This document shows, in pieces, positions 1-27,592 of a stretch of DNA of 64,000 bases. The notes beneath the pieces were generated by a model. That model was not told the DNA's origin, ran no database searches, and worked only from the letters and a program-made list of their open reading frames with translations. The position numbers were made by a program, and so were the translations under genes. Within the stretch, counting starts at the first letter, position 1, and the number at the start of each line of letters is the position of its first letter. Location: NCBI RefSeq assembly GCF_054482595.1, contig NZ_CM137008.1; one strand, written 5' to 3'.

Positions 1-190
1 CATTTTCTGCGCCGCCACAAATTTTGGCTGCATCAACAGTTTTCTGCTGTCCAATTCCCGAAACGAAGAAATGATGGGTGATGGTTTCCTTTGGTGTTAC
101 TGCTGTCGGTTTGTTTCCAACAGTAAACGTCTGTTGAGCACATCCTGTAATAAGCATTGCCAGAGCGGCAGAAAACAACATTTTTTTCAT
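1..190 (-). CDS. bor: Bor-family outer-membrane lipoprotein (lambda Bor/Iss-like); N-terminal part only, C-terminus outside window
   Basis: Reverse-strand translation from ATG at 188..190 reads MKKMLFSAALAMLITGCAQQTFTVGNKPTAVTPKETITHHFFVSGIGQQKTVDAAKICGGAEN, lipobox ITGC, matches lambda Bor as recalled. Confidence 0.8.
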   Translation of the reverse strand, partial: MKKMLFSAALAMLITGCAQQTFTVGNKPTAVTPKETITHHFFVSGIGQQKTVDAAKICGGAEN

Positions 191-714
191 CTTATTATCC
201 TGCATTGTTAAAAACGGCAGAATCCTATGTGACAACAATTAAACGATAGTTAAATGGATTGATGAAAATTAAAACTATATAGGTGTACGGTCAGACTATT
301 GGAGGTAGTCAGGATTTGAATGTCAGTCTGTTGTCGGCATTCTGGCAATGCAATTTGGATAAAGCGGGGATTAAAAAGATAGAGGCGAGCCGGTCAGGTA
401 GAAATGAATCAGGCTCAAATTGAAGCGGAAAAGGTCTGTGGCACAAACTGATGCTGCCATAATTACAGCCTGATGACTTGTGGAATGAAACATGTTGAAC
501 CTCCTTAATTGATGTGATTCGAGTGAGGAAGGCATTCTGTCCCTCTATAGTGTCCATTAAATCAAACGGGAAATTTGTCTCATGCGTGAGACAAGTCTCT
601 CCATTAGTGAGTTGTATTGATTGCGACTCTTCAAAGAATCCATTACTGCGTTGATGAAAAAGGTTTACTACGAATGAAGGCAGCTATTTCGCTGGTTTCT
701 TCATTGGAGTACAT

Positions 715-1065
715 ATGCCCCCACGAACCCCAAAAGCCTGCCGTGTTCGCGGCTGCCGCTTTACAACCACGGACCCTTCAGGCTACTGCGAAAGCCACAA
801 AAGCGAAGGCTGGAAGCAATACAAACCTGGACAATCCCGTCATCAGCGCGGCTACGGTTCGAAGTGGGACAGTATCCGCGCGCGTGTCCTGAAGCGTGAC
901 AAAGGCCTGTGTCAGTTATGTCTGCGTGCTGGTGTGGTGCGTGAGGCGAAGACCGTTGACCACATCATCCCTAAATCGCATGGCGGCACTGATGTCGACA
1001 GTAATCTGCAGAGTTTGTGCTGGCCGTGTCATAAGGCGAAGACGGCCCGTGAACGGCTGAAGTAA
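715..1065 (+). CDS. Phage HNH endonuclease (packaging-associated)
   Basis: 116 aa ORF with Cys pairs and DHIIPKSHGG...N motif (His-Me finger); sits immediately upstream of terminase genes as in HK97-like phages. Confidence 0.85.
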   Translation: MPPRTPKACRVRGCRFTTTDPSGYCESHKSEGWKQYKPGQSRHQRGYGSKWDSIRARVLKRDKGLCQLCLRAGVVREAKTVDHIIPKSHGGTDVDSNLQSLCWPCHKAKTARERLK

Positions 1066-1090
1066 GAACCAGTTCCCACTGCCAGAGGGG

Positions 1091-1151
1091 AGGGGCGGGT
1101 CAAATCCCTGTGACCTGACGTCTTCTGGACTGCCCGCCCCATCGTTTTTTT
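1091..1151 (+). terminator. GC-rich long hairpin followed by T-run in HNH-terS spacer
   Basis: ggggcggg ... cccgcccc inverted repeat then atcgttttttta. Confidence 0.35.
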
Positions 1152-1190
1152 ATACCCGCGAAAAATGAAATTTAACCAGGAGTGCCGCAT

Positions 1191-1685
1191 ATGGCTGGAA
1201 CGGCGGGGCGTTCCGGGCGTCGCCCCAAGCCAACGGCGCGCAAGGCGCTGGCCGGAAACCCCGGCAAGCGAGCCCTGAATAAAGATGAACCTGTTTTTAC
1301 GCCCATCAAAGGTGTTGAGCCACCGGAGTGGTTCGCTGAAGAAGATCTCCCTCTCGCCACGATCATGTGGCAACTGACAACCAAAGAACTCTGCGGTCAG
1401 GGCCTGCTGTGCGTGACTGACCTCGCGGTGCTTGAGCGGTGGTGTGTGGCCTATGAGTTCTGGCGACGTGCCGTGAAAAATATTGCCAGACAGGGCAACA
1501 CCATCACCGGTGCAATGGGCGGTATGGTCAAAAATCCTGAGCTGACCGCCAAAAAAGAACAGGAGTCCGAGATGAGCAGTACGGGGGCAATGCTCGGACT
1601 CGACCCCAGCAGCCGCCAGCGTCTGATTGGCCTGGCGGGGCAGAAGAAAGCCACTAACCCGTTTCTGAAAATTATCGAATCATGA
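1191..1685 (+). CDS. Terminase small subunit (P27 family)
   Basis: [14 protein letters not shown]... N-terminus typical of P27-family TerS; aggag SD at 1178..1182; ORF track start 1182 is a GTG three codons upstream. Confidence 0.85.
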
Positions 1686-3415
1686 GCCGGAAATCTTATC
1701 CCAACGTAAATGCTGCCAATCAGTATGCCCGGGATGTCGTTCGCGGAAAGATTGTGGCCTGCCAGTTTGTGATTCAGGCCTGCCAGCGCCATCTTGATGA
1801 CCTGATGGCGGAAAAAAGTAAGTCGTTTCGTTACCGCTTCGACAAGGACCTGGCTGAACGGGCCGCCAAATTTATTCAGCTGTTGCCGCATACCAAGGGT
1901 GAGTGGGCATTCAAACGGATGCCCATCACGCTGGAGCCGTGGCAGCTCTTTGTGATCTGCTGTGCGTTTGGCTGGGTCAATAAAGGTACCCGGCTGCGCC
2001 GCTTCCGGGAGGTGTATACCGAAATCCCCCGTAAGAACGGCAAATCGGCAATCTCTGCCGGTGTCGCCCTGTATTGTTTTGCCTGTGATAACGAGTTTGG
2101 CGCGGAAGTGTATTCCGGTGCCACGACAGAGAAACAGGCGTGGGAAGTCTTTCGCCCGGCGCGACTGATGTGTAAACGCACACCCATGCTGACGGAAGCG
2201 TTCGGGATTGAGGTTAACGCCTCAAACATGAACCGTCCGGAGGATGGCGCGCGGTTTGAGCCGCTGATCGGTAACCCCGGTGATGGTTCATCACCCCACT
2301 GTGCGGTGGTGGATGAATATCACGAGCATGCCACCGATGCACTTTACACCACGATGCTTACCGGGATGGGGGCGCGACGTCAGCCACTGATGTGGGCCAT
2401 CACCACCGCCGGGTACAACATTGAGGGGCCGTGCTACGACAAGCGGCGGGAAGTTCTCGAGATGCTCAACGGTTCGGTACCCAACGATGAACTGTTCGGG
2501 ATCATCTATACCGTTGACGAAGGCGATGACTGGACCGACCCGCAGGTGCTGGAAAAAGCCAATCCAAATATTGGCGTGTCGGTTTATCGCGAATTTTTGT
2601 TAAGTCAGCAGCAGCGTGCGAAAAATAACGCCCGTCTGGCAAACGTCTTTAAAACAAAACACCTCAATATCTGGGTGTCGGCGCGTTCGGCGTATTTCAA
2701 CCTGGTGAGCTGGCAGAGCTGCGAGGATAAATCACTGACCCTTGAGCAGTTCGAGGGGCAGCCGTGCATTCTGGCCTTTGACCTGGCGCGTAAGCTGGAT
2801 ATGAACAGCATGGCGCGACTTTATACCCGCGAGATTGACGGTAAAACGCATTACTACAGTGTGGCCCCGCGTTTCTGGGTACCGTATGACACGGTGTACA
2901 GCGTCGAGAAAAATGAAGATCGACGGACAGCCGAACGCTTTCAGAAATGGGTGGAAATGGGCGTTCTGACCGTTACCGATGGTGCGGAAGTGGATTATCG
3001 CTACATCCTCGAGGAGGCCAAAGCGGCGAACAAAATCAGCCCGGTCAGTGAGTCACCCATCGACCCCTTCGGGGCGACCGGGTTGTCACATGACCTTGCT
3101 GATGAAGACCTGAATCCCGTCACTATCGTCCAGAACTTCACCAATATGTCCGACCCGATGAAAGAGCTGGAAGCGGCGATTGAATCGGGACGTTTTCATC
3201 ATGACGGCAATCCCATCATGACCTGGTGTATCGGCAACGTGGTCGGCAAAACCATTCCGGGTAACGATGATGTGGTGAAGCCCGTCAAAGAGCAGGCGGA
3301 AAACAAAATCGATGGTGCAGTTGCGCTGATTATGGCGGTTGGCAGAGCCATGCTGTACGAGAAAGAAGACACGCTGTCTGACCACATTGAGTCCTATGGG
3401 ATCCGCTCGCTTTAA
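1682..3415 (+). CDS. Terminase large subunit
   Basis: 577 aa ORF directly after TerS with ATGA start/stop overlap; size and position typical of TerL. Confidence 0.9.
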
Positions 3416-3426
3416 CTGAGGTAATT

Positions 3427-3609
3427 ATGATCATGCTGATTCTCGCGCCTCTGGTGGGCGTGCTGGGGGCGCTTTTGCTGGCGTATGGTGCCTGGCTGAT
3501 TTATCCCCCGGCGGGGTTTGTTGTTGCCGGGGCGTTGTGCCTGTTCTGGTCGTGGCTGGTGGCGCGATATCTCGACCGTACACAGTCGTCTGCCGGCGGA
3601 GGTAAATAG
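3427..3609 (+). CDS. Small hydrophobic protein (two predicted TM helices) between terL and portal
   Basis: 60 aa [49 protein letters not shown]; gagg SD 6 nt upstream; tightly packed between terL and portal. Confidence 0.45.
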
Positions 3610-4850
3610 TGTTCTTTTCGGGATTATTTCAACGAAAAAGTGACGCACCGGTGACCACGCCAGCAGAGCTGGCGGATGCTATCGGGTTGTCCTACGACAC
3701 CTATACCGGAAAGCAGATCAGCAGCCAGCGGGCCATGCGACTGACGGCGGTTTTTTCCTGTGTCAGGGTGCTGGCGGAGTCGGTCGGGATGTTGCCCTGC
3801 AACCTGTATCACCTGAACGGCAGCCTGAAGCAGAGAGCCACTGGCGAACGTCTGCATAAGCTGATCTCCACGCATCCCAATGGCTATATGACGCCGCAGG
3901 AGTTCTGGGAGCTGGTGGTCACCTGTCTGTGCCTGCGGGGAAACTTTTACGCCTACAAAGTGAAAGCATTTGGCGAAGTGGCTGAACTGCTGCCCGTCGA
4001 TCCCGGCTGTGTGGTACCGAAGCTTAACAGTAGCTGGGAGCCGGTCTATCAGGTCACATTCCCGGATGGCTCCACGGATGTACTGAGCCAGGAGGATATC
4101 TGGCATGTGCGCACGCTGACGCTGGACGGACTGGTGGGGCTGAATCCCATCGCCTATGCCCGCGAGGCAATATCGCTGGCGGCAGCGACCGAAGAGCACG
4201 GGGCCAGACTGTTCAGCAATGGCGCGGTGACGTCGGGTGTGTTGCGTACAGAGCAGACGCTGTCAGATCAGGCTTATGAGCGCCTGAAGAAAGATTTTGA
4301 GGAGCGTCACACCGGGCTTGGCAATGCTCACCGCCCGATGATCCTTGAGATGGGGCTGGACTGGAAGTCGATGGCGCTGAACGCCGAGGACAGCCAGTTC
4401 CTGGAAACCCGCAGGTTTCAGCTTGAAGAAATCTGTCGTCTGTTCCGGGTGCCGTTGCACATGGTGCAGAACACCGATCGCGCCACCTTCAACAATATCG
4501 AAGAGCTGGGGCTGGGATTTATCAACTATTCACTGGTGCCGTATCTGACCCGCATCGAACAGCGGATCAACACCGGACTGGTACGAAAAAGTAAGCAGGG
4601 CGTTTATTACGCCAAATTTAACGCCGGGGCGTTACTGCGCGGGGATATGAAGTCCCGTTTTGAAGCCTACGCCACCGGGATCAACTGGGGAATTTACTCT
4701 CCCAATGACTGCCGCGACCTGGAAGATATGAATCCGCGTCCCGGTGGTGATGTCTATCTCACACCGATGAACATGACCACGAAACCCTCCGATGGCAGTA
4801 AAGCCGGTAAGCAGAAGGATAACGCCAATGCAGACGAAACAACGTCTTGA
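3609..4850 (+). CDS. Portal protein (HK97 family)
   Basis: 413 aa ORF, GTG start with ggagg SD, position after TerL. Confidence 0.85.
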   Translation: MFFSGLFQRKSDAPVTTPAELADAIGLSYDTYTGKQISSQRAMRLTAVFSCVRVLAESVGMLPCNLYHLNGSLKQRATGERLHKLISTHPNGYMTPQEFWELVVTCLCLRGNFYAYKVKAFGEVAELLPVDPGCVVPKLNSSWEPVYQVTFPDGSTDVLSQEDIWHVRTLTLDGLVGLNPIAYAREAISLAAATEEHGARLFSNGAVTSGVLRTEQTLSDQAYERLKKDFEERHTGLGNAHRPMILEMGLDWKSMALNAEDSQFLETRRFQLEEICRLFRVPLHMVQNTDRATFNNIEELGLGFINYSLVPYLTRIEQRINTGLVRKSKQGVYYAKFNAGALLRGDMKSRFEAYATGINWGIYSPNDCRDLEDMNPRPGGDVYLTPMNMTTKPSDGSKAGKQKDNANADETTS

Positions 4851-5478
4851 TGTACCGCTGAGTCTGAAATCTGTCAGTGACTCCGGTGAGTTTGAAGGGT
4901 ATGGCTCTGTCTTTGGTGTAAAGGACAGCCACGATGATGTGGTGATGTCCGGGGCATTTGCTGCTTCCCTGCGGGCGTGGAGTGACAGAAAAGCGTTACC
5001 TGCACTGCTCTGGCAGCACCGTATGGATGAGCCCATCGGTGTTTACACCGAAATGAAGGAAGACGATGTCGGGCTTTACGTCAGGGGGCGGTTGCTCATT
5101 GATGATGATCCCCTGGCAAAACGCGCACATGCACACATGAAGGCCGGTTCGCTAACCGGCCTTTCTATTGGGTACGTCCTGAAGGACTGGGAATACGACC
5201 GGACGAAAGAAGCCTTTCTGCTGAAAGAAATCGACCTCTGGGAAGTCAGTCTGGTGACGTTTCCGTCTAACGACGAGGCGCGGATCAGCGACGTCAAGAA
5301 CGCGCTGGCCCGCGGGGAAATCCCCGAACAGAAAAAAATCGAAAGAGTCCTGCGTGATGTCGGACTCTCCCGTACCCAGGCCAAAGCATTCATGGCCGGG
5401 GGCTATGGCGCACTGTCCCTGCGCGACGCTGAGGATGTGGGCTCTGCACTGAATGCACTGAAAAATCTGAACTTCTAA
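4828..5478 (+). CDS. Prohead maturation protease (HK97 family)
   Basis: ORF 4792..5478; likely start ATG 4828 (MQTKQRLDVPLSL...) after the portal; position between portal and capsid. Confidence 0.8.
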   Translation: MQTKQRLDVPLSLKSVSDSGEFEGYGSVFGVKDSHDDVVMSGAFAASLRAWSDRKALPALLWQHRMDEPIGVYTEMKEDDVGLYVRGRLLIDDDPLAKRAHAHMKAGSLTGLSIGYVLKDWEYDRTKEAFLLKEIDLWEVSLVTFPSNDEARISDVKNALARGEIPEQKKIERVLRDVGLSRTQAKAFMAGGYGALSLRDAEDVGSALNALKNLNF

Positions 5479-5492
5479 TCAGGAGAAATACG

Positions 5493-6698
5493 ATGGCGGT
5501 TGATATTAAAGATGTCGAACAGGTCGCGCAGGAGCTGCAGCAGAAGTTTGACGACTTCAAAGCAAAGAACGACAAGCGCGTGGATGCGATTGAGCAGGAA
5601 AAAGGCAAGCTTGCCGGGCAGGTGGAAACCCTGAACGGGAAACTCAGCGAGCTGGAAAATCTCAAAAGCGACCTTGAAAAAGAGCTGCTTGAGCTGAAAC
5701 GTCCGGCAGGTGGTGCGCAAAATAAACTGGCCACCGAGCATAAAGAAGCGTTTGTGGGCTTCCTGCGTAAAGGCCGTGAAGACGGTCTGCGCGATCTGGA
5801 GCGTAAGGCATTGCAGGTGGGCACCGATGAAGACGGTGGCTACGCCGTGCCGGAAGCGCTGGATCGCAACATTCTCAACCTGCTGAAAGATGAAGTGGTG
5901 ATGCGTCAGGAAGCCACGGTGATCACCGTTGGCGGTTCCGACTACAAAAAACTGGTGAATCTGGGCGGCACGGCTTCCGGATGGGTGGGGGAAACGGATA
6001 CGCGATCCCAGACTGCCACCTCCAGACTGGAGCTGATTGAACCTCTCATGGGGGAAATCTACGGCAACCCGCAGGCTACCCAGAAAATGCTGGACGATGC
6101 CTTCTTCAACGTGGAAGCATGGATCAACAGCGAGCTGGCAACCGAATTTGCCGAACAGGAAGAAATTGCCTTTACCACCGGCGATGGTACCAAGAAGCCG
6201 AAAGGGTTCCTGGCGTATGAATCCACGGATGAAACCGATAAGGTCCGGGCGTTCGGCAAACTTCAGCATATTGTATCCGGCGACGCGACTGCGGTGACCG
6301 CTGATGCCATTATCAAACTGATTTACACGCTGCGAAAGGCACACCGCACCGGCGCGAAGTTCATGATGAACAACAACAGCCTGTTTGCCATCCGTTTGCT
6401 GAAAGACACCGAGGGTAACTATCTGTGGCGTCCGGGGCTGGAACTGGGGCAGCCGTCCTCTCTGGCGGGTTACGGTATCGCTGAAAACGAACAGATGCCG
6501 GATATCGCCGCTGATGCGAAAGCCATTGCATTTGGTAACTTCAAACGGGGTTACACCATCGTTGACCGTATCGGCACCCGCATTCTGCGTGACCCGTACA
6601 CCAATAAACCGTTTGTCGGTTTTTATACCACCAAGCGCACCGGCGGGATGCTGGTCGATTCGCAGGCCATCAAACTGCTGAAGATTGCAGCGGCGTAA
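5493..6698 (+). CDS. Major capsid protein (HK97 fold)
   Basis: 401 aa ORF with aggag SD, N-terminal coiled-coil-like delta domain (EQVAQELQQKFDDFKAKNDKRV...) typical of HK97-type capsid precursors. Confidence 0.9.
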   Translation: MAVDIKDVEQVAQELQQKFDDFKAKNDKRVDAIEQEKGKLAGQVETLNGKLSELENLKSDLEKELLELKRPAGGAQNKLATEHKEAFVGFLRKGREDGLRDLERKALQVGTDEDGGYAVPEALDRNILNLLKDEVVMRQEATVITVGGSDYKKLVNLGGTASGWVGETDTRSQTATSRLELIEPLMGEIYGNPQATQKMLDDAFFNVEAWINSELATEFAEQEEIAFTTGDGTKKPKGFLAYESTDETDKVRAFGKLQHIVSGDATAVTADAIIKLIYTLRKAHRTGAKFMMNNNSLFAIRLLKDTEGNYLWRPGLELGQPSSLAGYGIAENEQMPDIAADAKAIAFGNFKRGYTIVDRIGTRILRDPYTNKPFVGFYTTKRTGGMLVDSQAIKLLKIAAA

Positions 6699-6701
6699 TC
6701 A

Positions 6702-6732
6702 TTCAGGGGCGCGGAACCGCGCCCCCTGTTCT
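6702..6732 (+). terminator. Hairpin after major capsid gene
   Basis: ggggcgcgg aacc gcgcccc followed by tgttct. Confidence 0.35.
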
Positions 6733-6747
6733 GACGGGTGAAGAATC

Positions 6748-6948
6748 ATGATCCTGAAACAAGATCTGAAATGGTCACCGGACGGTATGCGTGTTGAGGT
6801 CATTCGGGCCGGTGAGTATGACGACGGGGCGCTGCCTGCCCGGGTGCAGGAGATTGCACTTCAGGCCGGGTTAGCAGAGCGCGGAACCAGTGCAAAAAGC
6901 AGTAAAGCGGCAAAAGAGAAAAAAGCCACGACCAGTAAAGAGGGCTGA
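6748..6948 (+). CDS. Small hypothetical head-module protein
   Basis: 66 aa ORF in gene-dense head module, Lys-rich C-terminus. Confidence 0.4.
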   Translation: MILKQDLKWSPDGMRVEVIRAGEYDDGALPARVQEIALQAGLAERGTSAKSSKAAKEKKATTSKEG

Positions 6949-6950
6949 GT

Positions 6951-7274
6951 ATGCTTCTGACAATAGAAGAGATTAAAGCCCAACTCCGGCTGGATGAGGA
7001 TTTCGATACTGATGACCGTCATCTGCAACTGCTGGCCTGTGCGGCGCAAAAGCGGACGGAAACGTATCTGAACCGGAAGCTCTATGCACCGGATGAAACC
7101 ATTCCGGACAGCGATCCGGACGGACTACACCTGCCGGATGATATTCGTCTGGGGATGCTGATGCTTATCAGCCATTTTTACGAAAACCGCTCGTCGGTTA
7201 CGGAAGTGGAGAAACTCGACATGCCGCAGAGTTTTGGCTGGCTTGTCAGCCCGTACAGGTACTTTCCGCAATGA
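6951..7274 (+). CDS. Head-tail connector protein (gp6-like)
   Basis: 107 aa ORF after capsid gene; size, acidic character and position. Confidence 0.65.
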   Translation: MLLTIEEIKAQLRLDEDFDTDDRHLQLLACAAQKRTETYLNRKLYAPDETIPDSDPDGLHLPDDIRLGMLMLISHFYENRSSVTEVEKLDMPQSFGWLVSPYRYFPQ

Positions 7275-7681
7275 AAATTCGTCAGGCGCAGACCAGCGCA
7301 ACCTACATCCTGCCGGACCCCGGCGAACTGAATAAACGCGTCCTGATCCGCCAGCGGGTGGATATGCCCGCGGATAACTTTGGCGTGGAGCCTCAATACC
7401 CGGTTGCGTTCCGGGCATGGGCGAAGGTTATCCAGACCAGTGCCACCACCTGGCAGGAAACCGCGCAGACCGGAGACGCCATCACCCATTACATCACCAT
7501 TCGCTACCGCCGGGGGATCACTGCTGATTATGAGGTGGTCTGTGGTGACAGTGTGTACCGCGTGAAACGTCAGCGTGATCTGAACGGAGCGCGGCGCTTT
7601 CTGCTGCTGGAGTGTACGGAGCTGGGCGAATTTACGCAGAGTCACGGAGGCAACAATGGCGACTTCCTTTTTGCACGTTGA
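7271..7681 (+). CDS. Head closure / head-tail adaptor protein
   Basis: 136 aa ORF translationally coupled to upstream gene. Confidence 0.6.
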   Translation: MKIRQAQTSATYILPDPGELNKRVLIRQRVDMPADNFGVEPQYPVAFRAWAKVIQTSATTWQETAQTGDAITHYITIRYRRGITADYEVVCGDSVYRVKRQRDLNGARRFLLLECTELGEFTQSHGGNNGDFLFAR

Positions 7682-8162
7682 TTTTCAGCAGCCCGCGGAG
7701 ATGCGCTTTAACCGCGCCCGTGTCCGGCGGGCGTTTGTCACGATTGGTCAGCGTCATATGCGTGATGCCCGTCGGCTGGTGATGCGCCGTGTGCGGTCGG
7801 CACCGGGTGAAAACCCCGGTTATCAGACCGGACGCCTGGCTCGTTCGATTGGTTACATGGTACCCAGAGCCAGTAAACATCGCCCTGGTTTTATGGCACG
7901 TATAGCCCCTAACCAGCGTAATGGAGAGGGAAACCGCCGTATCACCGGTGATTTTTATCCGGCTTTTTTGTTCTATGGCGTGAGGCGAGGGGCAAAGCGT
8001 CGTCGCAGCCATCATCGTGGTGCATCCGGTGGCAGCGGCTGGCGACTGGCTCCACGTAATAACTTCATGGTGGAAACGCTTGAAAAGAACCGCAGTTGGA
8101 CACGCTATTTTCTGGCGCGGGAATTGCGTAAATCACTGAAGCCGGAGCGACGACACAGATGA
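7656..8162 (+). CDS. HK97 gp10-like head-tail joining protein
   Basis: 168 aa basic ORF, ggagg SD, position in connector block. Confidence 0.55.
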   Translation: MATSFLHVDFQQPAEMRFNRARVRRAFVTIGQRHMRDARRLVMRRVRSAPGENPGYQTGRLARSIGYMVPRASKHRPGFMARIAPNQRNGEGNRRITGDFYPAFLFYGVRRGAKRRRSHHRGASGGSGWRLAPRNNFMVETLEKNRSWTRYFLARELRKSLKPERRHR

Positions 8163-8719
8163 AACTGACGCCTGTTATTGCTGCACTGCGTGCCCGCTGT
8201 CCGTATTTTGAAAACCGGGTTGCAGGCGCGGCCCAGTTCAAAAATCTGCCGGAGGTCGGAAAGCTGAAACTCCCGGCGGCATATGTTGTACCGGGTGATG
8301 ATTCTCCGGGAGAAAACAAAAGCCAGACCGACTACTGGCAGGAGCTGAAAGAGGGTTTCTCCGTGGTTGTCATACTGAGTAACGGGCGTGATGAGCGCGG
8401 TCAGTTTGCCTCGTATGATGTGGTGGACGATGTCCGGCAGATGCTCTTTAAGGCTCTGCTGGGCTGGAACCCGGAGGCGTGCGGTAACCCGATTACCTAT
8501 GACGGCGGCACGCTGCTGGATCTGAATCGTCATGAGCTGATTTATCAGTTCGATTTTTCGGTCATCAGCGAGCTGACTGAAGACGATACCCGCCAGCAGG
8601 ATGATCTGAACAGTCTGGATGAACTGCAAACGCTGGCGATTGATGTTGATTATCTCGATCCCGGTAACGGGCCTGACGGCGATATCGAACATCACACCGA
8701 AATAACCCTTCCTTCCTGA
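8159..8719 (+). CDS. Tail completion/terminator-like protein (Mu gp37-like)
   Basis: 186 aa ORF immediately upstream of sheath gene. Confidence 0.5.
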   Translation: MKLTPVIAALRARCPYFENRVAGAAQFKNLPEVGKLKLPAAYVVPGDDSPGENKSQTDYWQELKEGFSVVVILSNGRDERGQFASYDVVDDVRQMLFKALLGWNPEACGNPITYDGGTLLDLNRHELIYQFDFSVISELTEDDTRQQDDLNSLDELQTLAIDVDYLDPGNGPDGDIEHHTEITLPS

Positions 8720-8727
8720 GAATCTTC

Positions 8728-8898
8728 ATGTTTGTGAAACCTGTTAAAGGGCGGTCAGTGCCTGACCCTGCCCGCGGTGACCTTTTGCCCACCGAAGGGC
8801 GAAATGTTGACGAGAACAACTACTGGCTGCGCCGTGAAGCAGCGGGTGATATCCGGCGCGTGAATAAAAAGGTGAACACCGATGACGATAAGCTTTAA
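8728..8898 (+). CDS. Small conserved-looking protein preceding the sheath gene (56 aa)
   Basis: Not in ORF track (below 60 aa); read by eye: MFVKPVKGRSVPDPARGDLLPTEGRNVDENNYWLRREAAGDIRRVNKKVNTDDDKL, ends overlapping sheath start. Confidence 0.4.
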   Translation: MFVKPVKGRSVPDPARGDLLPTEGRNVDENNYWLRREAAGDIRRVNKKVNTDDDKL

Positions 8899-19494: not shown

Positions 19495-19904
19495 TGAATG
19501 CGTCATATGCAGTTATTGAAAATGGGATGGTTGTGAATGTCATTGTCTGGGATGGCGAGGCTGAATTCACAGTGCCGGATAATCAGCAGCTCATTGATAT
19601 TTCTGATATCAGTGAGCATCCCGGAATCGGCTGGGGGTATTCAGACGGGGTATTTACTGCGCCGCTCCCTCCGGAACGTTCTCATGATGAACTGGTAGCT
19701 GACGCTGAACAGAAAAAACAGTCGCTGATAGACGCAGCAATGGCCAATATCAGCGTGATTCAGTTAAAGCTGCAGGCCGGGCGCAAACTGACGCAAGAAG
19801 AAACTACCCGACTTAACGTTGTGCTGGATTACATTGACGCGGTGACAGCAACTGATACCAGCACCGCGCCAGATGTCATCTGGCCTGAACTGCCGGAGGC
19901 GTAG
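19494..19904 (+). CDS. Tail fibre assembly protein (Tfa/U-like)
   Basis: Start ATG overlapping fibre stop (taATG); C-terminal ...LDYIDAVTATDTSTAPDVIWPELPEA typical Tfa tail. Confidence 0.75.
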   Translation: MNASYAVIENGMVVNVIVWDGEAEFTVPDNQQLIDISDISEHPGIGWGYSDGVFTAPLPPERSHDELVADAEQKKQSLIDAAMANISVIQLKLQAGRKLTQEETTRLNVVLDYIDAVTATDTSTAPDVIWPELPEA

Positions 19905-20316
19905 GCCATTCAATATCTGGCCCACTGGAAGTATCGACCAGCTCCAGTGCGTCCAGATAATCCAGCCACAAATTATATTGCGCCAGTTCCTCACCTTTCA
20001 GACGACCAATAGCCGCTTTACCAGCCCATTGTTTACTGTTCATATAATCGTTAGCCTGATTAATCAATTGCTGCTTTTCCAGTTCGGCTGCAGCAATCTG
20101 TTCCTCATGTGTTGGTGGTGGAATTTCAGACCATGCAGGAAAACCATTTTCTCCAGCGATACGGATTTTTCCTTTCGGCGGTAATCCGGAAAACTCAATA
20201 TACGCTTGCTCATCAACTTCAACAGCATCATCTGGCCATGAGTCAGCTTGAGTGTAATCCTCTTTCATTTCCAGTGGATAGAAAGAGTTTGTAGTCGCGG
20301 AATATATGTAATTCAT
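19876..20316 (-). CDS. Alternative tail fibre assembly protein (Tfa-prime), inverted orientation
   Basis: 146 aa, convergent with tfa, C-terminus ...WLDYLDALELVDTSSGPDIEWPTPP paralogous to Tfa. Confidence 0.7.
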   Translation of the reverse strand: MNYIYSATTNSFYPLEMKEDYTQADSWPDDAVEVDEQAYIEFSGLPPKGKIRIAGENGFPAWSEIPPPTHEEQIAAAELEKQQLINQANDYMNSKQWAGKAAIGRLKGEELAQYNLWLDYLDALELVDTSSGPDIEWPTPPAVQAR

Positions 20317-20337
20317 TTTTCACTCCATATAGCTAAA

Positions 20338-20730
20338 TTAACAGCCTAACGCTAAAAATGAAGCGCCGAGACCTGGAGTACTGGCTCTGGATATAAATTT
20401 AACCGGGTCGGAACTAAAACCTGCGCAGGCAATATAACCAACAGACCCGCTATCTGGTGTGTAGTCTTGTGAGACCAAAACACGCAGACATCGGTTTGGA
20501 AATGCAATCGGAAAATGGGTTACCACATCCTGTGCAATGCCTGGTGCGCCGATTGAGCCCCACTGAAGAATAAAACCAGATGGTAATTTTTGATATCCAG
20601 TACCTGAAACAGAAAGCGTGAAGCTACCCATATCAGGTATCTGATTCGTCCCTGTCCCCACATTCCTTTTTGCCGCTTCTCCCAAACCAACGTTTATGAA
20701 AATGCAGAAATAACAAGCAAATGGCATCAT
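20338..20730 (-). CDS. Alternative tail fibre variable C-terminal segment (Sv-prime), unexpressed in this orientation
   Basis: Minus-strand ORF upstream of tfa-prime; contains right crossover site and encodes ...FINVGLGE... matching the junction peptide of the expressed fibre. Confidence 0.55.
20678..20700. repeat. Right invertase crossover site (inverted copy)
   Basis: tctcccaaacc AA cgtttatgaa; reverse complement shares ggtttgggaga half-site with left site. Confidence 0.5.
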
Positions 20731-20756
20731 TCCTGCTTTTGTCAGGGAGATCTATC

Positions 20757-20885
20757 ATGCTTATTGGTTATGTACGCGTATCAACAAATGACCAGAATAC
20801 CGATCTACAACGCAATGCGCTGAACTGTGCAGGGTGTGAGCTGATTTTTGAAGACAAGATAAGCGGTACAAAGTCCGAGACCTAG
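20757..20885 (+). pseudogene. pin: Truncated DNA invertase gene (Pin/Gin/Hin family), only about 42 N-terminal codons
   Basis: MLIGYVRVSTNDQNTDLQRNALNCAGCELIFEDKISGTKSET then stop; serine-recombinase N-terminus with catalytic Ser in YVRVSTNDQ; full-length invertases are about 190 aa. Confidence 0.75.
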
Positions 20886-20980
20886 GGCTGACACTGCTGT
20901 TCTTGATGCAAATTAAAGGATTTAATAGTGAGTAGCGGCCTTACTAATGTAAGGCCGCTATAATCATTTTATTAATTGCA

Positions 20981-22870
20981 TTAATCGTGTTTTGGCCATA
21001 CTTTCAATGCAATTTCCCCCAACTTTTTACCCCGCTCCAGGATTTCATCCTCATCCCATTTATCCTTAACTATAAGTGGAATGTTCAGTCGTAGATTGGT
21101 GTGGACGATGAGAGCATCACGTTTTTTCAGAAATACAGCATTCTGAACAGAACGGTTTACGCTAAGGTTAAGCAAAGTTAGATTTCCCAACGTAGCTATC
21201 GCTTGTTGCCGTTTCCTTACCAGTAGCTGTTCAGGGGTAAGATCGGTTCCAGACAGAACAATTTGGTTCAATACCGTAGCATCTGAATTTGTCACCATAT
21301 GACCATTTTCGAGAGGCCAACAGGAAAACCAACTTTGAGGCATAAGATGATCGATATCGAGATTGGAAAGATTTGGACCATCAGGCTTCTCTGTCTTCAC
21401 TTGGCGACAAAGTTCTCTTTCAAGTTCCGTTAACATTGAGCGCATTTTCGGTGCGTCGAGCCTGCCAGGATAAAGTGGAGCATTGATGCAAGCATTGAGA
21501 AATTCTGAGTCACCAGGCCAACGTGAGGCTTCGCCATTTAAGCTATTGAGGATATTACGTAACTCAACACTGGAAATTTCCGTTTTAGACAAGTGCCGCA
21601 ATACATTCATAAATACATTGTTGTAATTCTTTGGCGTCAGGCCACATACGGCTCTTCGTACTACGTAGGAGACAAGATCATTATACATGGCTGCTTTCTC
21701 ATCATCAGCGATGTTAGCTATCGAAATGAACAAAGCAAGCGGATAAAGTGTCGTCACATCATAGTCTGCGATGCGATATCCAAAGTGTGAGATGGGGGTT
21801 GTGCCAAAACCATCAACCAATTCTTTATATTGTGATGCATATTGTTTGAGGCGCTTTACTTGCAGATCTGCTCGTTGTGAAGACAAGTCCTTACTTACAT
21901 AATCACGATACTCATTGTAAAGGCGAGACAGATCAATTTCACGCTGCCTTTCTGATTGCAATGTCGCATGTACTAGCCACTCCATGCGTGGTTTATTAAT
22001 ACGTCCACGGCGTTGCTTTTCCGACCAGTATTTATCTTCAAAGCTCTTCCACTCATTTTCATATAATTCAATAGCATTAATATTTTCATGCTCAGCGCAC
22101 ATAAAGATATAGTTGCGAATAAGATCCGTGGCATGAAGTTCCGCCCCTCGCCCATTTAATGTTTCAAAAATTATTTGGGCATCATCTTCAGCTTCGAGAA
22201 ATATGCTTACCAGTTTCAGATCTGTTAAGACAGCCTCAATTAGAGCTACAGCATTTTCTTGTGGTGAGTGGTTTTCTATTTTAATCCATTTTATAAAGGC
22301 TTCAGTAAAAAAACATAATGCTTCTAGTGATGGCGGGTGATTAAAATGCTTACGCAACGTACCATGCTGCGTGAAACTATCAGAGAATACGTCCCGGAGA
22401 TCGTCAATATTTTCAACATTAAAACTTTGAATAAAATGAGTTTGATCCCGAAAAGTTGGCCATAGTTTGAAGCGTTCTACTTCTTTATTTCGCATTGTGT
22501 CTTCGTTTGAGTTTTTCAGGCAAGGCGAAATGAGAGCCTCTAAGCTGAAAAGATCCGTAGCACGTAATGCTAATCGGATGGATGCCAGAACATATTGAAG
22601 AGTGGTCAATCGTTGCTGACCATCAATAATATGTATGGAATCTACACCTAATAATCCTTTTTTTGATTGAGGTTCCAGTACAACCGCACCAAGGAAATGG
22701 GGAGTTGGTTTTGTACCCGAGAGCCGGGATTGTGCTTTCTCTAGGATATCCTCCAGTAGAGCTGACCATTGGTCTTGCTGAGTCCATACATAGGCACGTT
22801 GATAGAATGGAACACAGTATTGTCGGCGGTCTTGAAAAAGTTGTTGGACAGTTAGCGTCTCGGATTTCAT
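20981..22870 (-). CDS. GmrSD-like type IV restriction endonuclease candidate (DUF262 N-terminal, DUF1524 C-terminal)
   Basis: ORF 20981..22930; motifs FYQRAYVW and IIDGQQRLTTL (DUF262) and NLDIDHLMPQSW (DUF1524 His-Me); probable start MKSETLTVQQ at 22870 with AGG SD; visibly AT-rich. Confidence 0.8.
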   Translation of the reverse strand: MKSETLTVQQLFQDRRQYCVPFYQRAYVWTQQDQWSALLEDILEKAQSRLSGTKPTPHFLGAVVLEPQSKKGLLGVDSIHIIDGQQRLTTLQYVLASIRLALRATDLFSLEALISPCLKNSNEDTMRNKEVERFKLWPTFRDQTHFIQSFNVENIDDLRDVFSDSFTQHGTLRKHFNHPPSLEALCFFTEAFIKWIKIENHSPQENAVALIEAVLTDLKLVSIFLEAEDDAQIIFETLNGRGAELHATDLIRNYIFMCAEHENINAIELYENEWKSFEDKYWSEKQRRGRINKPRMEWLVHATLQSERQREIDLSRLYNEYRDYVSKDLSSQRADLQVKRLKQYASQYKELVDGFGTTPISHFGYRIADYDVTTLYPLALFISIANIADDEKAAMYNDLVSYVVRRAVCGLTPKNYNNVFMNVLRHLSKTEISSVELRNILNSLNGEASRWPGDSEFLNACINAPLYPGRLDAPKMRSMLTELERELCRQVKTEKPDGPNLSNLDIDHLMPQSWFSCWPLENGHMVTNSDATVLNQIVLSGTDLTPEQLLVRKRQQAIATLGNLTLLNLSVNRSVQNAVFLKKRDALIVHTNLRLNIPLIVKDKWDEDEILERGKKLGEIALKVWPKHD

Positions 22871-23140
22871 GGTATACCTGTAAGCGACATTGTACAAAAG
22901 TGAGGAGTTAATCTGATTTAGAACAATCATTTTATTTTGCTATGATACAACGTATTTGTTACCGGTTAAGCAAAAAACGCGTCTGAACGCTGACGTTTTA
23001 GGGCTTTACTGGTTATTCTTTCTTATCTCTTCATCATCCCATCGGCATCCTGTCGAGGTTGTTGACTTGTTGTTATTTATTTTGTCTAGGCGCTGTTTAA
23101 TTATTATTGATAGAACTGATGGTGAGAGGTGATTGAAACC

Positions 23141-23170
23141 GTAGGCACGTCGTTTGCAAGGACGTGCTAC
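23141..23170. other. Stable hairpin in AT-rich spacer
   Basis: gtaggcacgtc gtttgcaag gacgtgctac, about 10 bp stem with one bulge. Confidence 0.3.
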
Positions 23171-23225
23171 GACTGGCTGGTGAATTTCCGATAGTGCGAG
23201 TATTGAATGATTTCCTACGTGCTAA

Positions 23226-23472
23226 CTAGTGAACAAACAACTCTTCAGTAGACTCTCAGGTATCATTCAGAGTTTCCTGAACGAAAGTTTTAGCTCAATC
23301 TTTATCTGCAGTATGTCTAACTGAAAAACTATCGTTGCTGGTGGCTTTTACGATCATCTCCACATCGTCATAACGCTTGCCAATGTGTTGGGTTAATTCT
23401 TCCTTTAACGCGTCCACAGCGCCGTTTGGCATTTGGTCATTTGTCTTTGGCTATGGAGATCTCAATACGCAT
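23226..23472 (-). pseudogene. dinI-family gene remnant disrupted by a frameshift and two in-frame TGA codons
   Basis: Minus strand reads [11 protein letters not shown] then, one nucleotide out of frame, [66 protein letters not shown]; resembles DinI (MRIEVTIAKTSPLPAGAIDALAGEL...SVRY...ILQETWESADDWFV) as recalled; length about 246 nt. Confidence 0.55.
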
Positions 23473-23677
23473 AACACTTCTTTTGTACTGCGTTTGTAGA
23501 CAGTATTATTCTTATCTGTGTAAATAAACAGTATCAAGACTTCGTTTTAGCTGCATAAGAAAAAAGAGATGGATACATTCGGAAAGCTTTTGATGGTGGT
23601 AGGCTAAGTGAATAGCCTAAAGGTGTTTTACCCCAATTATTCCCCGGTATTTCTCCGCATAAAAAACAATCATAAAA

Positions 23678-23710
23678 AAACCAGCCATAATAGGCTGGTT
23701 TTTAAGGGAT
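23678..23710 (-). terminator. proL terminator (hairpin flanked by A and T runs, bidirectional)
   Basis: aaaaaaa ccagcc ataata ggctgg ttttt just 3' of the tRNA on the minus strand. Confidence 0.5.
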
Positions 23711-23713
23711 TTT

Positions 23714-23790
23714 TGGTCGGCACGAGAGGATTTGAACCTCCGACCCCCGACACCCCATGACGGTGCGCTACCAGGCTGCGCTACGTGCCG
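23714..23790 (-). tRNA. proL: tRNA-Pro (anticodon GGG)
   Basis: Reverse complement cggcacgtagcgcagcctggtagcgcaccgtcatggggtgtcgggggtcggaggttcaaatcctctcgtgccgacca; cloverleaf with U33-GGG-G37 anticodon loop, TTCAAAT T-loop and CCA end. Confidence 0.92.
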
Positions 23791-23864: not shown

Positions 23865-25625
23865 TCAGTTAGCGATAAAACGCTTCTCGTCTGTCAGTAC
23901 TTGCAATAACAAACTTAACTGTGGTTTTTCATCTTTCACTCTTTCACCACGTAAGTTGTAAGTGCGGTATTTACCGTTATTGTTCAGCACCAGCGTCTTT
24001 TTCGGGGTGGTAATTGCCAGCGTATCGTTATCCGCTGCGGTAACCCAGTAATGACGGCGTTGAGGGTTGAACAAATCCTGACCTTGCGAATATTCGCTGG
24101 CAGGTGTGCTGACATGTAGCAGGCGTTGCATCAGCGTCGTCATCAGATCGGTATGATCAGTCAGCGCATTAATACGCTGCGCCGGCGTGCCTGGCCAGTG
24201 AATCACTAATGGCACCTGCAGATGACCGTGGGACCAGTCAAAGGTTTCTTCCTCTTCGCTCAGTGGAATACCCCGACCGGCAGTGATAATCACCACCGTG
24301 TTGTCCAGTTTGCCAGAATCACGCAGTGCATTGAGCACGCGGTTGATCTGGTCATCGACATTGCCTGCCGCCCGGCTATATTTCCGTGCAAATGCCTGCT
24401 GATTGCTGTCGTCAATGTTAGTGCCATTGAAAGAGACCCACGAGAACCAGCGGTTATCTTCTTGTGCGTAGCGGCCCAGCCAGTTGATCCACTGCGTGGC
24501 GGTCTGCTCGTCGGATTGGGTGCGTACGCTCGGCATCGAGAAATCTGACAACAATGCCTGGCGATACAGCGGGCTGGTAAAGCCATCTGATGAGAATAAC
24601 CCCAGCTGATAGCCTTGCTGATTAAGCGCAGTAATTAATGCCGCAGGCGTACGGGTCGACAGAATGCCGTCCATATAGCTCGGCGAGATGCCATAGAACA
24701 GGCCAAAGATGCCGTTGTCTGTAGTGTTGCCGGAGCTCATATGGCGCGTAAACGAAATATTTTGCTCAGCAAAACCTGCCAGCGCAGGCATCTGCTTCTC
24801 GAAGCGTGAGTAGTTCAGGCCATCGACAGTAATCAACAGCACATTCTGCCCAGTGCCCATATCGCGATAGCGCAGTTCGCTTAACGGATACTGAACGGAA
24901 ACGGCGTCTGGATTACCTTGCTCAATAAGACGGCGTTGATACTCCTGCGCATCAAGCAGGCCATGCTTCTCAAGAAAACGTCGCGCCGTCATCGGGTACG
25001 AAAGCGGCAGGTTAGCGCGCTGCATGGTGATCGGGCGATAGAAGTTGGCATCGGCCCAGATATACACCACATGCGAGGCGATAAAGGCGATAAATAAGAA
25101 TGCGGCCAGCGGGCGCGCGAAGCGCCGACGACGCGTCAGGCTGCGCAGCTTTTGCCAGCTCCACGTCGCAAACACCAGTTCAAGCAATAAAATAACCGGC
25201 ACGCTGATGAACATCAGCTGCCAGTCGCGCGCCATCTCATTTTCGTCTGGGTTGATAACCAGTTGCCAGACGATGGGATTAAGATGGAGATGGAAACGAG
25301 TAAAGACTTCGCTATCGATCAGTAATAGCGTCATTCCCGCCGTTGCCAGAATGACGGACAAAAACCTCATCAGCCTCTGGGAGCCGACGATAAAGGTCAG
25401 CGGGAAGAGGATCAGCAAGTAGGCGGCGAACACCAGGAAGCTGAAATGGCCGATAATGCTTACGTAGGAATAAATGCGACCAGCAAGCGTGGTCGGCCAG
25501 TCGGCGATAAACAGGTAACGGCTGCCAATGACGAGCGAAAGCAGAATATTGAACAGTGCAAACCAGTGCCCCCAACTGACCATCTGGGAGACTTTTTCAC
25601 GGTAGCGCTGACGATGAGTTACCAT
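23865..25625 (-). CDS. yejM: Inner-membrane cardiolipin/LPS homeostasis protein YejM (PbgA/LapC)
   Basis: 586 aa, N-terminal TM region then sulfatase-like domain; K-12 synteny next to proL. Confidence 0.9.
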   Translation of the reverse strand: MVTHRQRYREKVSQMVSWGHWFALFNILLSLVIGSRYLFIADWPTTLAGRIYSYVSIIGHFSFLVFAAYLLILFPLTFIVGSQRLMRFLSVILATAGMTLLLIDSEVFTRFHLHLNPIVWQLVINPDENEMARDWQLMFISVPVILLLELVFATWSWQKLRSLTRRRRFARPLAAFLFIAFIASHVVYIWADANFYRPITMQRANLPLSYPMTARRFLEKHGLLDAQEYQRRLIEQGNPDAVSVQYPLSELRYRDMGTGQNVLLITVDGLNYSRFEKQMPALAGFAEQNISFTRHMSSGNTTDNGIFGLFYGISPSYMDGILSTRTPAALITALNQQGYQLGLFSSDGFTSPLYRQALLSDFSMPSVRTQSDEQTATQWINWLGRYAQEDNRWFSWVSFNGTNIDDSNQQAFARKYSRAAGNVDDQINRVLNALRDSGKLDNTVVIITAGRGIPLSEEEETFDWSHGHLQVPLVIHWPGTPAQRINALTDHTDLMTTLMQRLLHVSTPASEYSQGQDLFNPQRRHYWVTAADNDTLAITTPKKTLVLNNNGKYRTYNLRGERVKDEKPQLSLLLQVLTDEKRFIAN

Positions 25626-27199: not shown

Positions 27200-27592
<393 letters not shown>

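Follow-up and report, generated by a model that had tools for sequence, protein, structure and literature searches.

Positions 1-23761 of the window (the whole 64,000-nucleotide stretch of DNA that was analysed) appear to hold the right-hand part (~60%, the late genes) of an SfV-like temperate myophage of ~40 kb that was put into the 3′ end of proL by a lambda-type tyrosine integrase, a reading to which we assign a probability of roughly 0.9 from sequence comparison. The prophage type at proL is an ordinary, well-known E. coli kind, with an HK97-style head and a Mu-style contractile tail, and the finding has little weight beyond annotation. The puzzling layout, in which the tail end lies at the tRNA with no integrase nearby, appears to have a simple cause, namely which way the attP core points in the integration module that this member of a common E. 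coli prophage family has swapped in. Features are collected in Table 1.

Table 1. Features of the prophage and its chromosomal flank (positions are those of the window)
Feature	Position	Strand	Basis or remark
bor/iss lipoprotein gene	1-190	-	First 63 codons, cut at window edge; "iss" at equivalent position in 50EVA and MLI107
HNH endonuclease, terminase-associated, directly upstream of cos	715-1065	+	phrog_144, E=9e-46
cos, approximate, inferred only	1124		Base 1 of deposited linear SfV and SfIV genomes aligns there
Terminase small subunit, P27 family	1182-1685	+	phrog_83; RefSeq name in 50EVA
Terminase large subunit	1682-3415	+	phrog_9; 26% identity to HK97 gp2; RefSeq name in 50EVA
Portal, HK97-type	3609-4850	+	phrog_12; BLASTP to HK97 gp3, E=3e-57
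Prohead protease	4792-5478	+	phrog_80; BLASTP to HK97 gp4, E=6e-26
Major capsid protein	5493-6698	+	phrog_10; BLASTP to HK97 gp5, E=3e-8
Head-tail joining: 66-aa protein, Ad1 adaptor, Hc1 head closure, Neck1/tail completion	6748-8162	+	PHROGs 1020, 40, 25, 879
Tail terminator, Mu gp37 position	8159-8719	+	phrog_209; RefSeq name
DUF2635 protein, Mu gp38 homologue	8728-8898	+	42% identity to Mu gp38; RefSeq name
Tail sheath	8882-10378	+	36% identity to Mu L over 502 aa, E=6e-91
Tail tube	10378-10734	+	phrog_185, common to Mu M
Tail assembly chaperone	10734-11152	+	Matches Mu by position only
Tape measure	11145-12977	+	Tape measure PHROGs
Moron, 148-aa OB-fold/Sie-like, low-GC insert between tape measure gene and N	13010-13456	-	phrog_8545 "superinfection exclusion Sie-like", E=7e-49
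Baseplate genes N/DNA circularisation, P, gp45, gp46, gp47, gp48	13519-18564	+	BLASTP to Mu gp43-gp48, 29-42%, E 2e-14 to 2e-57; PHROGs
Tail fibre S, expressed: constant N-terminus and glycine-rich variable C-terminus	18568-19494	+	PHROG tail fibre families
Invertible tail-fibre segment, 1808 bp	18870-20677		Crossover sites 18852-18869 and 20678-20695
Fibre assembly protein U	19470-19904	+	PHROG tail fibre assembly families
Silent U′	19876-20316	-	phrog_188
Silent gp53-like Sv′ fibre tip	20338-20677	-	Upstream ORF read-through to 20730; phrog_2557/1396
Din-family serine invertase, 42-codon stub	20757-20885	+	35/41 identical to Mu Gin residues 1-41
GmrSD-family type IV (modification-dependent) restriction enzyme, predicted, 649 aa	20981-22930	-	Pfam GmrSD_N + GmrSD_C; PADLOC mREase_IV
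DinI-like pseudogene (frameshift and internal stop)	23255-23472	-	RefSeq annotation at equivalent positions in EC20-4B-2 and 50EVA
Intrinsic terminator, phage-supplied, replaces native proL terminator	23676-23703	-	Terminator scan
attR core, 51 bp (3 bp + proL 3′ 48 nt)	23711-23761		Exact repeat in 50EVA, EC20-4B-2, MLI107; four-way att alignment
proL, intact tRNA-Pro(GGG), 3′ 48 nt now phage-derived	23714-23790	-	ARAGORN; Rfam tRNA, 54.9 bits
yejM, chromosomal flank	23865-25625	-	RefSeq annotation of matching genomes

Membership in the SfV-like group is indicated by high nucleotide identity across the structural module, at 96.9-97.3% to SfII, SfI, SfIV, and SfV over positions 1078-18869 (17.8 kb), and by the combination of an HK97-type head and packaging module with a Mu-type contractile tail, which is evident from BLASTP to HK97 gp2-5 and Mu gp38-48 and from PHROG assignments. 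All structural ORFs in the window are intact and PHROG-assigned, and the late genes there are full length (~27/27). The mosaic of HK97-type head and Mu-type contractile tail that the earlier note had described is real and is supported by BLASTP, PHROGs, and DNA identity alike, and the comparison with SfV-like and Mu-like genomes that it had proposed placed the element at 97% DNA identity to the SfV group, with Mu tail homologues in the same order at 29-42%. The claimed succession of Bor, HNH, P27-type TerS, TerL, and HK97-type portal, protease, and capsid genes is present in full, with 26-36% identity to HK97 gp2-gp5 in BLASTP. Packaging would proceed via the module formed by the HNH endonuclease, cos, and the P27-TerS/TerL pair.

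In the tail region, homologues of Mu gp38, L, N, P, gp45, gp46, gp47, gp48, and U′ were found by BLASTP with the Mu order kept, while the likeness to Mu of the terminator (in gp37 position), chaperone, tape measure, and S is positional only. The one-for-one match to the Mu tail genes was overstated, since the invertase gene counted in the series is a dead stub. The moron at 13010-13456 (GC 0.44; absent from PCN061 and EC20-4B-2) breaks the Mu order. The sheath, which had been placed at 8159, begins at 8882; what begins at 8159 is the tail-terminator gene, and after it comes the gene for the DUF2635 protein (Mu gp38). Ten tail and baseplate proteins homologous to those of Mu, in conserved order, are what a Mu-like transposable phage or a domesticated tailocin would also contain, but it is scarcely conceivable that the element is either of these rather than a lambdoid prophage. 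Neither transposase A nor B, which together with transpositional integration mark Mu-like transposable phages, has any similarity in the window, the head and packaging genes are complete and of HK97/P27 type, and in the relatives a tRNA att repeat bounds the element, which there has a tyrosine integrase.

The tail-fibre genes have the layout of a Din-family switch, with inverted sites (18852-18869 and 20678-20695, an 18-nt inverted repeat that is 94% complementary and Mu gix-like) flanking alternative tip and assembly genes and the constant N-terminus lying outside. Both orientations are found: the 50EVA segment is the exact reverse complement of the 1808-bp segment of the window (0 mismatches), so placed that U′/Sv′ form an in-frame fusion with the constant S portion, and among genomes 28 have the orientation of the window and three are flipped. 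The adjacent intact serine invertase (~190 aa) of such switches is reduced here to 42 codons. What the earlier note had called a "gin-like" gene is just this stub, which matches the Gin N-terminus at 35 of 41 residues, loses DNA homology to gin at ~20871, and is labeled "recombinase family protein, incomplete" in RefSeq. The phage vB_EcoM-611R5 was dropped as an intact-invertase reference, its invertase being likewise short and its record containing host DNA. Host range would be set by this Mu-G-like invertible cassette. The exact inversion of the segment between the window and 50EVA, despite the dead invertase, suggests inversion in trans, and it is somewhat short of an even bet that the fibre switch, having lost its own invertase to the insertion of a defence gene, owes its continued flipping to a Din-family invertase that acts in trans from another resident element. 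If true, receptor choice by the prophage would depend on other elements in the cell. It is of minor interest that the cassette seems to go on switching without its own invertase.

The interval from stub to tRNA had been listed without the GmrSD gene and the DinI-like pseudogene, which fill 20.9-23.5 kb. The predicted GmrSD protein combines GmrSD_N (DUF262) and GmrSD_C (DUF1524) in one polypeptide (Pfam E=7e-34 and 2e-19, respectively) and gives a full-length PADLOC mREase_IV match of 1418 bits; the GC content of its gene is 0.40-0.43. Within a cargo slot near att, the GmrSD cassette probably took the place of the 3′ part of the invertase gene, alongside a decayed dinI. An intact DinI occupies the corresponding slot of phage Eeyore. 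The att-proximal slot of the Shigella relatives carries the O-antigen genes gtr/oac (PMC3851460), and it is of minor interest that the defence gene GmrSD sits where those relatives have O-antigen-modifying genes. With invertase and dinI both pseudogenes, some decay of the prophage is apparent. Could the low-GC stretch at 20.9-23.7 kb, with GmrSD and dinI, be a separate small tandem island between the phage end and proL? GC falls over this stretch from ~0.55 to ~0.40-0.43, the cassette starts at an abrupt break within the invertase gene, and tandem islands occur at proL in 50EVA. We nevertheless regard a separate island as very improbable: neither an integrase nor an extra att core was found in 20.9-23.7 kb, the block of stub, GmrSD, and dinI recurs at an equivalent internal position within the thrW-integrated cousin PCN061, the free phage Eeyore has the order invertase, dinI, attP, int, and the sequence arm on the left of the core agrees with the one at attP in Eeyore.

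At the chromosomal junction, the intact tRNA-Pro(GGG) faces the tail end of the prophage with its 3′ end, and no integrase lies on the tRNA side, both as the earlier note had it: tblastn with four tyrosine integrases, and likewise with Mu A and Mu B, returned no match anywhere in the 64-kb window. The possibility that an integrase or att repeat had been overlooked inside the window was also pursued, and the 24-nt att core was present there once, with no second copy. The full att repeat of 51 bp has the sequence TTTGGTCGGCACGAG...CATGACG. The hairpin of the phage-supplied terminator also occurs in the Eeyore attP arm, while the native hairpin stands at attB and attL. Of 5426 complete E. coli genomes, 102 contain the attR junction of the window.

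The integrase and second att copy that had been predicted beyond the left edge are seen in the related genomes 50EVA, MLI107, and EC20-4B-2, in all three of which an exact 51-bp direct repeat bounds a prophage with a lambda-type integrase. In 50EVA, the best prophage match among the 5426 complete E. coli genomes (99.9% identical, with an inversion and an IS insertion), the repeat lies 15.8 kb and int 12-13 kb left of the equivalent of window base 1, and the lambdoid order is attL, cargo, int, early genes, cI/cro-like, Q, lysis, iss, HNH, and onward. MLI107 holds a complete prophage with the same gene order, and in both the late genes are preceded by a lambda-like series of int, early, immunity, Q, and lysis genes. 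Neither NCBIfam nor PADLOC gave a match for the variable genes that relatives carry between attL and int. Of the pattern of tRNA integration, the window shows the intact tRNA and attR, and the three relatives show the displaced 3′ fragment and int. EC20-4B-2 carries an internally deleted copy with unchanged ends, and this deletion (from yfdR to the tail tube gene), together with the invertase and dinI having already become pseudogenes, is in line with the alternative named in the earlier note, in which the prophage of the window genome would be a defective remnant, here one that lacks integrase and early region. We consider such a remnant unlikely, given that the ~27 late genes in the window are all full length, that the window begins within bor/iss exactly like the complete prophages of 50EVA and MLI107, and that even the deleted EC20-4B-2 copy retains int and attL. 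In the temperate prophage that we favor, int would lie ~12-16 kb to the left of base 1 of the window, beside the displaced tRNA fragment of 51 bp that adjoins yejO.

The integration event can be laid out from four sites. Strain XH990 has an empty yejO-proL-yejM site (attB), and the chromosomal sequence around it is 100% identical to the window; a four-way alignment of attB (XH990), attL, attR, and attP (Eeyore) gives the expected exchange of arms. In the free phage Eeyore, whose Int is 77% identical, the proL core has the orientation of int and lies directly downstream of it, followed by dinI, invertase, and tail fibres. In PCN061, a cousin integrated at thrW, an unrelated Int lies directly against tRNA-Thr, and the invertase stub and GmrSD cargo are shared. 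The phage attP would carry the last 48 nt of proL and its own terminator, so that integration rebuilds a working tRNA. As the tRNA-derived core of the int/attP module shares the orientation of int, the attP arm that completes the tRNA would be the one on the tail-fibre/cargo end, and consequently the intact tRNA would meet the tail end, with int ~40 kb away. This would be why the tail end abuts the tRNA. When the int/att region and the cargo end were compared with 50,697 phage records by megablast, neither the int/att module nor the GmrSD cassette turned up in any phage; a literature search on prophage integration at proL/yejM gave nothing relevant, and the Islander paper gives no rule on the distance of int from the tRNA. 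A weaker version of the trans-flipping proposal would hold simply that the proL int/attP module, with its core oriented like int, is undescribed and places a variable cargo slot, rather than int, beside the tRNA.

Compared with known systems, the prophage shares with HK97 the homologous TerL, portal, protease, and capsid genes in the same order and an HNH gene directly upstream of cos and TerS, but identities are low (26-36%) and the HK97 tail is non-contractile and lambda-like. With Mu it shares homologues of gp38, L, M, N, P, gp45-48, and U′ in the same order, whereas it has no transposase, its head and packaging genes are unrelated to those of Mu, and identities are just 29-42%. The Mu G segment has the same invertible Sc-Sv-U/U′-Sv′ layout, in which gix-like sites are present and a gin-like gene follows directly; unlike Mu Gin, the invertase here is truncated to 42 codons. 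The restriction enzyme resembles GmrSD/BrxU-type enzymes in its GmrSD_N + GmrSD_C architecture and full-length mREase_IV match, and its sole sequence-detectable solved relative is the DUF262 protein 9jfl (E=6e-8, N-terminal domain). Phages Eeyore and Flotzy have a 77% identical Int, an attP with the proL 3′ core oriented like int, and the order invertase, dinI, attP, int, but differ in their structural genes and invertase (no megablast match) and lack the GmrSD cargo. In PCN061, the thrW-integrating cousin, the arrangement is opposite to that of the proL module. The match to SfV, SfII, SfI, and SfIV (1078-18869) takes in cos, terminase, the HK97-type head, and the Mu-type tail with its baseplate, and reaches as far as the constant tail-fibre part; SfV-like phages also share the lambdoid overall order, as read in complete relatives, and some early genes. 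In the Shigella SfV-like phages, integration is at thrW and the O-antigen genes gtr/oac lie beside attP (PMC3851460). The prophage at proL departs from this subgroup in its integration site and unrelated Int, in carrying GmrSD and a dinI pseudogene instead of gtr/oac, and in having an invertible fibre cassette and an extra Sie-like moron.

Within the window, the 24-nt proL core occurs once, with no second copy, and tblastn searches of the 64 kb with four tyrosine integrases and Mu A and B returned no match. The window thus holds neither an integrase nor an att repeat, as the earlier note had claimed, and its placement of both beyond the left edge is borne out in the related E. coli genomes 50EVA, MLI107, and EC20-4B-2. 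In 50EVA, whose prophage is 99.9% identical, a 51-bp proL fragment, an unknown gene (583 aa) and a 392-aa Arm-domain integrase come first, followed by early genes, cI/cro-like genes, replication, Q, lysis, iss, and HNH, and onward to proL. Counted leftward from the position equivalent to window base 1, int in 50EVA is 12-13 kb away and the repeat 15.8 kb. MLI107 carries a complete prophage of the same layout, directly flanked by yejO, while the EC20-4B-2 copy has an internal deletion and the same ends. All three genomes carry an exact copy of the repeat (TTTGGTCGGCACGAG...CATGACG), whose counterpart in the window is 23711-23761.

Outside the window, the interval between attL and int is a variable gene slot in these relatives. 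It encodes a 583-aa protein in 50EVA (locus L002, 7879-9630) and unrelated proteins of ~285 aa in EC20-4B-2 (locus L001, 31249-32100) and MLI107 (locus L008, 9216-10085), with no NCBIfam or PADLOC match for the slot proteins of the three genomes. 50EVA also has a second integrase-bearing island in tandem just past the prophage attL at proL (L002, 1-7254); an "ABC-three component system protein" is among the proteins it encodes.

Integration at proL could be reconstructed from an empty site and a free phage. Strain XH990 has the unoccupied arrangement yejO, 100 bp, proL, yejM, and its chromosome around the site is identical to the window. The Int of the free phage Eeyore is 77% identical to the proL-type Int, and the same proL core lies ~160 bp downstream of its int, ahead of dinI, an invertase, and tail fibers. 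A four-way alignment of attB (XH990), attL (MLI107), attR (window), and attP (Eeyore) gave the expected pattern: the attL left arm equals that of attB, the attR right arm equals that of attB, and the attR left arm matches one Eeyore attP arm, with a replacement terminator hairpin (23676-23703) in the shared sequence. The attR junction is also present in 102 of 5426 genomes. The sequence that the phage contributes downstream of proL (23672-23713) resembles the native sequence and has a similar terminator hairpin, so that empty-site genomes align to the window from 23672 and not from the att core.

The tail-end-at-tRNA layout is a matter of geometry, not of gene loss. In tRNA-integrated elements the integrase usually adjoins the tRNA; PCN061, a thrW-integrated cousin prophage, was the only contrast tested here. 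Its integrase lies 14 bp from the tRNA-Thr 3' end, in convergent orientation, with the tail/cargo end on the far side. The Int of PCN061 and the proL-type Int are unrelated, indicating that the integration module was swapped. The core derived from the tRNA has the same direction as int in the proL module, and therefore the attP arm on the tail-fiber/cargo side supplies the tRNA 3' end and terminator. Since this arm is joined to the cargo end, integration sets the rebuilt tRNA beside the cargo and tail genes, and int beside the displaced tRNA fragment.

A plus-strand gene block with a GC content of ~0.55 occupies 715-19904 (ORF listing, composition), and after it a low-GC stretch (0.40-0.43, composition) reaches up to tRNA-Pro(GGG). 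Beyond the tRNA come yejM and the usual E. coli core genes (fruBKA, setB, yeiQ, others), and several E. coli strains match this core region at 100% identity. In it, rplY is preceded by an ordinary chromosomal feature, the L25 ribosomal protein leader of Rfam (27506-27531, minus). At the other end, relatives have no annotated gene in the ~520 bp between bor/iss and HNH (191-714), and an 82-aa ORF in this gap (309-557, minus) is without support.

Features of the prophage and its attachment site
Feature	Coordinates	Strand	Basis or remark
bor/iss	1-190	minus	5' two-thirds of gene, at window start
Packaging/head: HNH endonuclease, P27-family TerS, TerL, portal, prohead protease, major capsid			PHROG
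Head-tail joining: Ad1, Hc1, Neck1 connectors			PHROG
Tail: tail terminator, DUF2635, sheath, tube, chaperone, tape measure			PHROG
Baseplate/fibers: N/DNA circularization, P, gp45-48 equivalents, tail fiber, fiber assembly protein			PHROG
Moron, Sie-like (superinfection exclusion)/OB-fold, 148 aa	13010-13456	minus	low-GC; tape measure/DNA circularization gap
Tail fiber S	18568-19494	plus	
U, fiber assembly protein	19470-19904	plus	
Inverted U'	19876-20316		
gp53-like fiber tip	20338-20677		
18-nt inverted repeats	18852-18869, 20678-20695		bound fiber segment; resemble Mu gix
"gin-like" stub, 42 codons	20757-20885		matches Gin residues 1-41 at 35/41 positions
GmrSD-family type IV restriction enzyme, 649 aa	20981-22930	minus	Pfam GmrSD_N + GmrSD_C; full-length PADLOC mREase_IV
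tRNA-Pro(GGG)	23714-23790	minus	tRNA scan; single tRNA-Pro(GGG)

The earlier note had read the cargo end as an invertible segment with a gin-like gene. The segment stands, but the gene is only a stub, in the window and in 50EVA alike. DNA homology of the stub to gin ends at about 20871-20879, and the low-GC GmrSD cassette starts exactly at the break-off point of the invertase gene. A frameshifted DinI-like gene is next after GmrSD toward the tRNA. The same stub, GmrSD, and dinI block is found inside the thrW-integrated PCN061, so it belongs to the phage; its presence there rules out a separate island. In 50EVA, an IS3-family element is inserted at the 5' end of the GmrSD gene. Window positions 18870-20677 (1808 bp) are the exact reverse complement of the 50EVA segment, with 0 mismatches and both flanks identical, and among genomes with the same stub/GmrSD junction the orientation is that of the window in 28 and flipped in 3. 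The invertase truncation is common to prophages ~3% divergent at two different att sites, while the flipped pair is near-identical; hence the inversion post-dates invertase loss. Gin, Pin, Cin, and Hin are established to cross-complement. These sequence comparisons suggest, as the simplest reading, that the segment may have been inverted in trans by another Din-family invertase.

PHROG searches assigned all sizeable prophage ORFs. BLASTP matched Mu gp38, L, N, P, gp45, gp46, gp47, gp48, and U' at 29-42% identity with their order kept, and the HK97 proteins TerL, portal, protease, and capsid with 26-36% identity; Mu M and the window tube protein fall in one common PHROG. The gene list and head/tail mosaic described from sequence at the outset are therefore real. 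Mu gene order is broken by the Sie-like moron, which is present in 50EVA and absent from PCN061 and EC20-4B-2. At the DNA level, the Shigella phages SfII, SfI, SfIV, and SfV are 96.9-97.3% identical over 1078-18869, and at least 80% of a 24.9-kb query is present in 170 of 5426 complete E. coli genomes. "SfV-like" phages have already been grouped as lambdoid phages whose tail is that of a myovirus (PMC3603311, citing Allison 2002), and those of Shigella use thrW as their integration site, with O-antigen genes adjoining int-attP (PMC3851460). The evidence supports placing the element in this well-known SfV-like family, as a member with a proL-specific integration module and defense cargo.
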